Assembly (NCBI RefSeq): GCF_058153355.1
Contig: NZ_CM177019.1
Direction: 5' to 3' (one strand)
Length of the DNA stretch: 64,000 nucleotides
Shown here piece after piece: positions 7,474-7,496 of this stretch. Both the position numbers and the translations under genes were made by a program. The notes under the pieces were generated by a model that was not told where the DNA came from, did not search any database, and saw only the letters and a list, made by a program, of their open reading frames with translations. Within the stretch, counting starts at the first letter, position 1, and every line of letters begins with the position of its first letter.

Positions 7474-7496
7474 AAGATGCATTTAAAATACATCTT
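7474..7496. promoter_or_regulatory. NsrR operator upstream of ytfE
   Basis: aagatgcatttaaaatacatctt, an 11-1-11 inverted repeat matching the NsrR consensus, about 27 nt upstream of the ytfE ATG. Confidence 0.65.

Follow-up and report, generated by a model that had tools for sequence, protein, structure and literature searches.

The DNA that we analyzed, referred to here as the window, is a stretch of 64,000 nucleotides in which ytfE is preceded, on the same strand, by an open reading frame (ORF) corresponding to ytfF, which is annotated as a DMT transporter gene in matching E. coli genomes. Within the 107-bp gap between these two plus-strand genes lies the 23-bp sequence AAGATGCATTTAAAATACATCTT (7474-7496), the 3' end of which is 26 bp 5' of the ytfE ATG. 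An inverted-repeat search resolved it into two arms of 11 nt each (7474-7484 and 7486-7496), which are separated by a 1-nt spacer and are 91% complementary (10/11). The sole arm mismatch, C7480 versus A7490, makes the repeat imperfect. An earlier note on this DNA had placed an 11-1-11 inverted repeat at these coordinates, directly upstream of ytfE, and it was right on both counts, the coordinates being exact and the ORF 26 bp downstream being YtfE by its NF008221 match. The features of the regulatory pair are collected in Table 1.

Table 1. The ytfE operator, its target gene, and the gene of its repressor (numbering of the window)
Feature	Coordinates	Strand	Basis or remark
NsrR operator, AAGATGCATTT-A-AAATACATCTT	7474..7496	.	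10/11 complementary, K-12 identity, matrix score
TAAAAT, -10-like (5/6 to TATAAT), putative ytfE promoter core	7484..7489	+	At operator dyad; read from sequence
GAGG(TA), Shine-Dalgarno-like, of ytfE	7510..7515	+	Kept in 44-sequence promoter alignment
ytfE (RIC/di-iron protein), regulated gene, 220 aa	7523..8185	+	NF008221, 418 bits
nsrR, Rrf2-family [4Fe-4S] NO-sensing repressor	45225..45650	-	NF008240; GTG start

The identity of both genes is well supported. YtfE matches the NCBIfam equivalog NF008221 with 418 bits (cutoff 254), displays an ScdA_N domain (PF04405, 72.5 bits) followed by a Hemerythrin domain (PF01814, 98.5 bits), and shows 3 amino-acid differences from K-12 YtfE. As for the repressor gene, which the earlier note had located at 45225-45650, the coordinates are correct, the gene is on the minus strand, and its product scores 293 bits against NF008240 (cutoff 182) and 129.5 bits against the Pfam Rrf2 model. 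The NsrR protein, which possesses Cys91, Cys96, Cys102, and Asp8, is 100% identical to that of K-12 (b4178); over 426 nt, the two genes differ by 4 synonymous changes. Three Cys and Asp8 ligate the cluster in the crystal structure of holo-ScNsrR (PMC5411485). Since NsrR acts in trans, the presence of ytfE and nsrR in one window is a coincidence of the map, with no mechanistic meaning.

The ytfE promoter is less clearly delineated. When we scanned 7350-7600 with the sigma-70 consensus, no full -35/-10 pair was found. We infer from the sequence that TAAAAT might be the -10 element, in which case it would be overlapped by the operator; the repeat was reportedly found to overlap the -10 element by Bodenmiller and Spiro in 2006.

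One reading of the repeat is that it is a chance palindrome of an A/T-rich intergenic region, with no function, and its geometry leaves some room for this. Repeats with an 11-1-11 geometry and at least 10/11 matches occur four times in the 64-kb window (at 1439, 7474, 23594, and 27884) compared to ~0.6 expected, so they are not vanishingly rare; in 100 order-1 Markov simulations, random 64-kb sequences contained a mean of 0.57 such repeats, with a maximum of 3. Geometry alone is thus too weak as a significance test, and we relied on a weight matrix instead. This symmetric, 23-bp NsrR matrix was built from 25 distinct non-ytfE sites listed for strain CFT073 in Table 4 of PMC5320621, which are ChIP-seq or predicted sites; ytfE was excluded and hence gave no input to the matrix. 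The earlier note had named a weight-matrix scan as the test by which its reading could be refuted, and the reading withstood it, with the ytfE 23-mer scoring 30.4 bits as the top site in the window. This score is 1) higher than that of every training site (maximum 26.5 bits), 2) 18 bits above the second-ranked position in the window, which has 11.9 bits, and 3) 9 bits above the best position found in 200 random 64-kb sequences (21.4 bits). No further full NsrR site above 12 bits was found with this matrix in the 64-kb window. When an 11-bp half-site matrix was applied to both strands of the window, the two ytfE arms were the top two half-sites, with 15.6 and 14.9 bits. In contrast to the geometry, the matrix match far exceeds chance.

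The same scans returned a few other elements. None of the other three repeats of this geometry (1439-1461, 23594-23616, and 27884-27906) is NsrR-like. The repeat at 23594-23616, which is perfect and GC-rich (AACGCCGACCAATGGTCGGCGTT) and located 3' of an ORF ending at 23569, resembles the stem of a terminator. Among the NsrR half-sites in the window, third rank (13.2 bits) goes to AAAATACATTT at 45677-45687, which precedes the GTG start of nsrR (45650) by 27-37 bp. Judging from its sequence, this half-site could mediate a weak autoregulation of nsrR; the text of the CFT073 ChIP-seq paper mentions neither autoregulation nor purA, the neighbor gene (PMC5320621).

An inverted repeat located in a 107-bp gap between same-strand genes might also act as RNA, by forming a hairpin that serves as a terminator or attenuator after ytfF or as a structure in the 5' untranslated region of ytfE, rather than as protein-binding DNA. 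However, the 7464-7506 segment folds with -4 kcal/mol only (z = -1.07), and 33 of 200 shuffled sequences fold equally well or better. The stem is A/U-rich, with a 1-nt spacer and no U-tract, and a terminator scan of 7350-7600 found none. Moreover, the 23-mer precedes the unrelated genes hmp, nsrR, and tehB in other genera, which fits a DNA operator. In view of the weak fold and the missing terminator pattern, we rejected the RNA-structure reading, which is extremely unlikely.

We then considered how the site is distributed among E. coli genomes. In a 150-bp alignment with K-12, the window shows differences at 7398, which lies in the coding part of ytfF, and at 7464 and 7499, none of them in the 23-mer; with a local divergence of 6.6%, however, 23 bp without a difference do not by themselves reach significance (P ~0.2). 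When a 30-mer around the site was searched against 5426 complete E. coli genomes, 5416 of them gave a match with a query coverage of 80% or more; 4180 records are identical to the 30-mer, 1161 have a single mismatch, and 94 have two.

For other species, we scanned one genome per species for AAGATGYATTTNAAATRCATCTT, which yielded at least 120 loci in as many species genomes. The gene starting within 350 bp of each site was typed by tblastn, and representatives were confirmed with NCBIfam models (NF009805 for hmp and NF008992 for tehB). As the site itself served as the query for these loci, any argument from their conservation of the 23 bp is circular, and the cross-species evidence is limited to gene association and spacing, to which this objection does not apply. 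Among the matches listed, 112 of 120 precede ytfE, hmp, nsrR, or tehB by at most 350 bp, and all four genes have been published or predicted as targets of NsrR (PMC1274295; PMC2884951). Per gene and with overlaps counted, these matches comprise 42 for ytfE, 43 for hmp, 32 for nsrR, and 6 for tehB. Divided into exclusive classes, the matches listed comprise 41 with ytfE only, 32 with hmp only, 22 with nsrR only, 10 with both hmp and nsrR, 6 with tehB, 1 with both hmp and ytfE, and 8 without an assigned gene. The gap between the site and the ytfE start codon, again among the matches listed, is 26 bp in 31 of 42 loci and 23-27 bp in 41 of 42, the corresponding YtfE orthologs sharing 66-100% protein identity with YtfE of the window. 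The 26-bp spacing is kept across Enterobacterales genera whose YtfE proteins are 66-94% identical. Together, the matrix score, the prevalence in E. coli, and the cross-species association and spacing refute a chance palindrome, the probability of which is practically nil.

Conservation in this promoter is not confined to the operator. An alignment of 44 ytfE promoters shows that the block at 7452-7462 (AAGGGTTATAG), 12-22 bp 5' of the operator, is conserved to near operator level, and it could be a -35 region or an activator site. The heptamer recognized by NarL/NarP is TACYYMT, to which the minus strand of this block (TAACCCT) is similar. The presence of the block directly upstream of the operator, the prediction by Rodionov et al. 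of a NarP input at dnrN/ytfE (PMC1274295), and the fact that related pseudo-palindromes are recognized by Rrf2 proteins all lend something to the idea that the main binder of the repeat is a different regulator, be it another Rrf2 protein such as IscR, or FNR, CRP, or NarL/NarP, and that the resemblance to NsrR sites is incidental. We nevertheless find this very unlikely. The 23-mer beats every training site on a matrix made from NsrR sites only, and it accompanies nsrR or NsrR regulon genes in 112 of the 120 species among the matches listed. By reading, it contains neither the FNR (TTGAT-N4-ATCAA) nor the CRP (TGTGA-N6-TCACA) core, while the NarL/NarP-like heptamer, if it is one, lies outside the 23 bp. 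Finally, NsrR itself was found on the ytfE promoter by ChIP-seq in CFT073 (PMC5320621).

The best explanation, which we hold with great confidence, is that the repeat is the operator by which NsrR controls ytfE, with the repressor covering the promoter and being released by NO. What we observed here is the identity of the site, how it scores with the matrix, the fixed position that it holds upstream of ytfE in different species, and an intact repressor gene. In vivo binding, derepression, and cluster chemistry come from the literature and would, by analogy, apply to this strain, while occlusion and the precise overlap with the -10 element are what we infer. When NO is absent, a [4Fe-4S]-NsrR homodimer would engage the operator with one winged-helix domain per 11-bp arm. 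NsrR would thus sit over the promoter core, with TAAAAT at the center, and RNA polymerase would be excluded or blocked; bound NsrR would also halt read-through from ytfF. NO would then nitrosylate or damage the cluster, upon which NsrR would lose its affinity for DNA and ytfE would be derepressed.

The published evidence is in line with this scheme. NsrR sites with an 11-1-11 geometry are described in PMC5320621, citing Partridge 2009. Binding and derepression are established for the K-12 site, which is identical to that of the window, and for the CFT073 site, which deviates by one base. In CFT073, a ChIP-seq peak shows that NsrR occupies this promoter in vivo, and ytfE is 69.6-fold up when NO is generated (PMC5320621), while in a Salmonella nsrR mutant ytfE is derepressed 544-fold (PMC2884951). 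Intact [4Fe-4S] NsrR is the repressing form, and nitrosylated NsrR does not repress (PMC9052748; PMC11500311). The CFT073 peak and the ~70-fold derepression bear out the earlier statement that the locus fits the established regulation of nitrosative stress in E. coli. At the sequence level, we found no evidence against the repeat being an NsrR operator.

The chromosome around this regulatory pair is less ordinary. The window is collinear, in reverse orientation, with positions 4,391,000-4,439,485 of K-12, and the aligned blocks are 93.4-97.8% identical, the most divergent part being the first 8.2 kb (from ytfJ to ytfE), with 93.4% identity. Extra DNA relative to K-12 is found at 8187-11067, 14630-22606, 25747-26330, and 39515-40580, which amounts to ~12.3 kb between ytfE and nsrR. 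Since this DNA is inserted between the two genes, their start codons are 38.1 kb apart in the window versus 25.8 kb in K-12. Compared with its best E. coli matches, the window has 98.3% identity in the region of the ytfE promoter and 99.4% in that of nsrR, while E. albertii, E. whittamii, and representatives of other Escherichia species show 87-94% identity. These sequence comparisons suggest a lineage that is E. coli-like but divergent or mosaic. The view that the backbone is canonical, put forward in the earlier note, therefore holds in part only: gene order is collinear and the regulatory pair intact, but identity is 93.4-97.8% and ~12.3 kb is inserted.

The extra segments have diverse contents. 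The first (8187-11067), between ytfE and cycA, contains two hypothetical minus-strand ORFs (8238-9731 and 9764-11080), both of which K-12 lacks. DNA similar to this segment is present in 628 of 5426 E. coli genomes, with at most 94% identity except for one record. An NCBIfam search with the two ORFs gave zero matches, and one of them shows a sub-threshold DKNYY match (PF13644, 22 bits versus a cutoff of 25). The second (14630-22606) is an accessory island of ~8 kb that stands in place of the K-12 ytfA-yjfZ junction, and its counterpart in E. coli 2013C-4282 is annotated with a TetR regulator, a 3-ketoacyl-ACP reductase, a sugar-phosphate isomerase, an enoyl-CoA hydratase, and a CoA transferase. 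Between yjfK and yjfJ, the window has an extra ORF of 356 aa relative to K-12 (39518-40588, minus strand), with an Ion_trans_2 domain (PF07885, 42 bits). At 59181-59602, there is a tRNA-Gly array, corresponding to the K-12 glyV/X/Y region, which gives multiple overlapping repeat alignments and may differ from K-12 in the arrangement of its copies.

The ytfE operator is an already known element, which the earlier note named rightly. Its value is that of a control, as it demonstrates that an established operator is recognizable from raw sequence. By sequence, this strain has an intact nitrosative-stress circuit, made up of the NsrR repressor and ytfE as its target, and NsrR biology gains nothing new from it. 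Perfect conservation of the operator does not, however, mean that the window is K-12-like, as the flanks are 2-7% divergent and there are several accessory insertions. Only three points go beyond the accessible literature, namely 1) an operator polymorphism, described below, 2) the half-site upstream of nsrR, and 3) the conserved block upstream of the operator. PMC4601167 (a review), PMC12249550, and PMC7567609 (Reg-Seq) contain no information on the ytfE promoter.

Among known systems, the closest is E. coli K-12 MG1655. In the aligned ytfF-ytfE intergenic region, all 23 bases of its ytfE operator are the same as in the window, the distance from operator to ATG is also 26 bp, ytfF is also upstream, and the NsrR protein is identical. 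Near the operator, the two differ at 7464 (A in the window and T in K-12) and at 7499 (A in the window and C in K-12, which changes TATCTT to TATATT). The K-12 operator is the one covered by Bodenmiller and Spiro (2006), Partridge et al. (2009), and the NsrR-ytfE interaction in RegulonDB/EcoCyc. Comparison with the K-12 ytfE promoter, which had been suggested as a check, thus gave 23 identical bases out of 23 and, with the top score on a ytfE-free matrix, supports the earlier claim that the repeat is the known NsrR operator.

In CFT073, the ytfE site has the same locus, arms, and spacing as in the window and is the top-ranked 11-1-11 site of that strain (ChIP-seq, PMC5320621 Table 4), but it differs at operator position 17, which corresponds to 7490 in the window. 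CFT073 has a G at this position (AAATGCATCTT), which makes the operator a perfect palindrome, whereas the window and K-12 have an A and pair at 10/11. Since the G is seen in the CFT073 DNA itself, the symmetric sequence given in Table 4 is genuine rather than a typographical symmetrization. Two of the one-mismatch E. coli records were sampled, DA61218 and S1-IND-02-A, and both have the CFT073-type G, while the A of the window is the majority allele among E. coli records. Conceivably, though we think it unlikely, the NsrR circuit is naturally tuned, with A or G at position 17 setting a lineage-specific strength of ytfE repression and the half-site at 45677-45687 providing weak autoregulation of nsrR, of a kind not known to be described for E. 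coli.

Structurally, the closest solved structures to NsrR are from S. coelicolor (5N07 and 7B0C, the latter in complex with a 23-bp operator). In the NsrR-hmpA1 complex (PDB 7B0C; PMC9338935), an Rrf2 dimer with [4Fe-4S] occupies a 23-bp pseudo-palindromic operator, and the cluster ligands of ScNsrR, three Cys and Asp8, are also kept in NsrR of the window. In contrast, the hmpA1 operator (AACACGAATATCATCTACCAATT) has another sequence than the ytfE operator, and the ScNsrR chain is only distantly related to NsrR of the window (phmmer E = 1.5e-19). ScNsrR is ~39% identical to E. coli NsrR (PMC9052748), and according to PMC10783083 no enterobacterial NsrR structure has been solved.

The last comparison is with the NsrR regulon described in other bacteria by Rodionov et al. 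in 2005. The pattern AAGATGYATTT-N-AAATRCATCTT is common to the window and to the hmp, nsrR, and tehB sites in Acinetobacter, Legionella, Methylobacter, Bacillaceae, and Morganellaceae. The arrangement differs, however: in many of these other genomes the site adjoins nsrR, so that control there is local or autoregulatory, whereas in the window 38 kb separate the site from the repressor gene and the target is ytfE.
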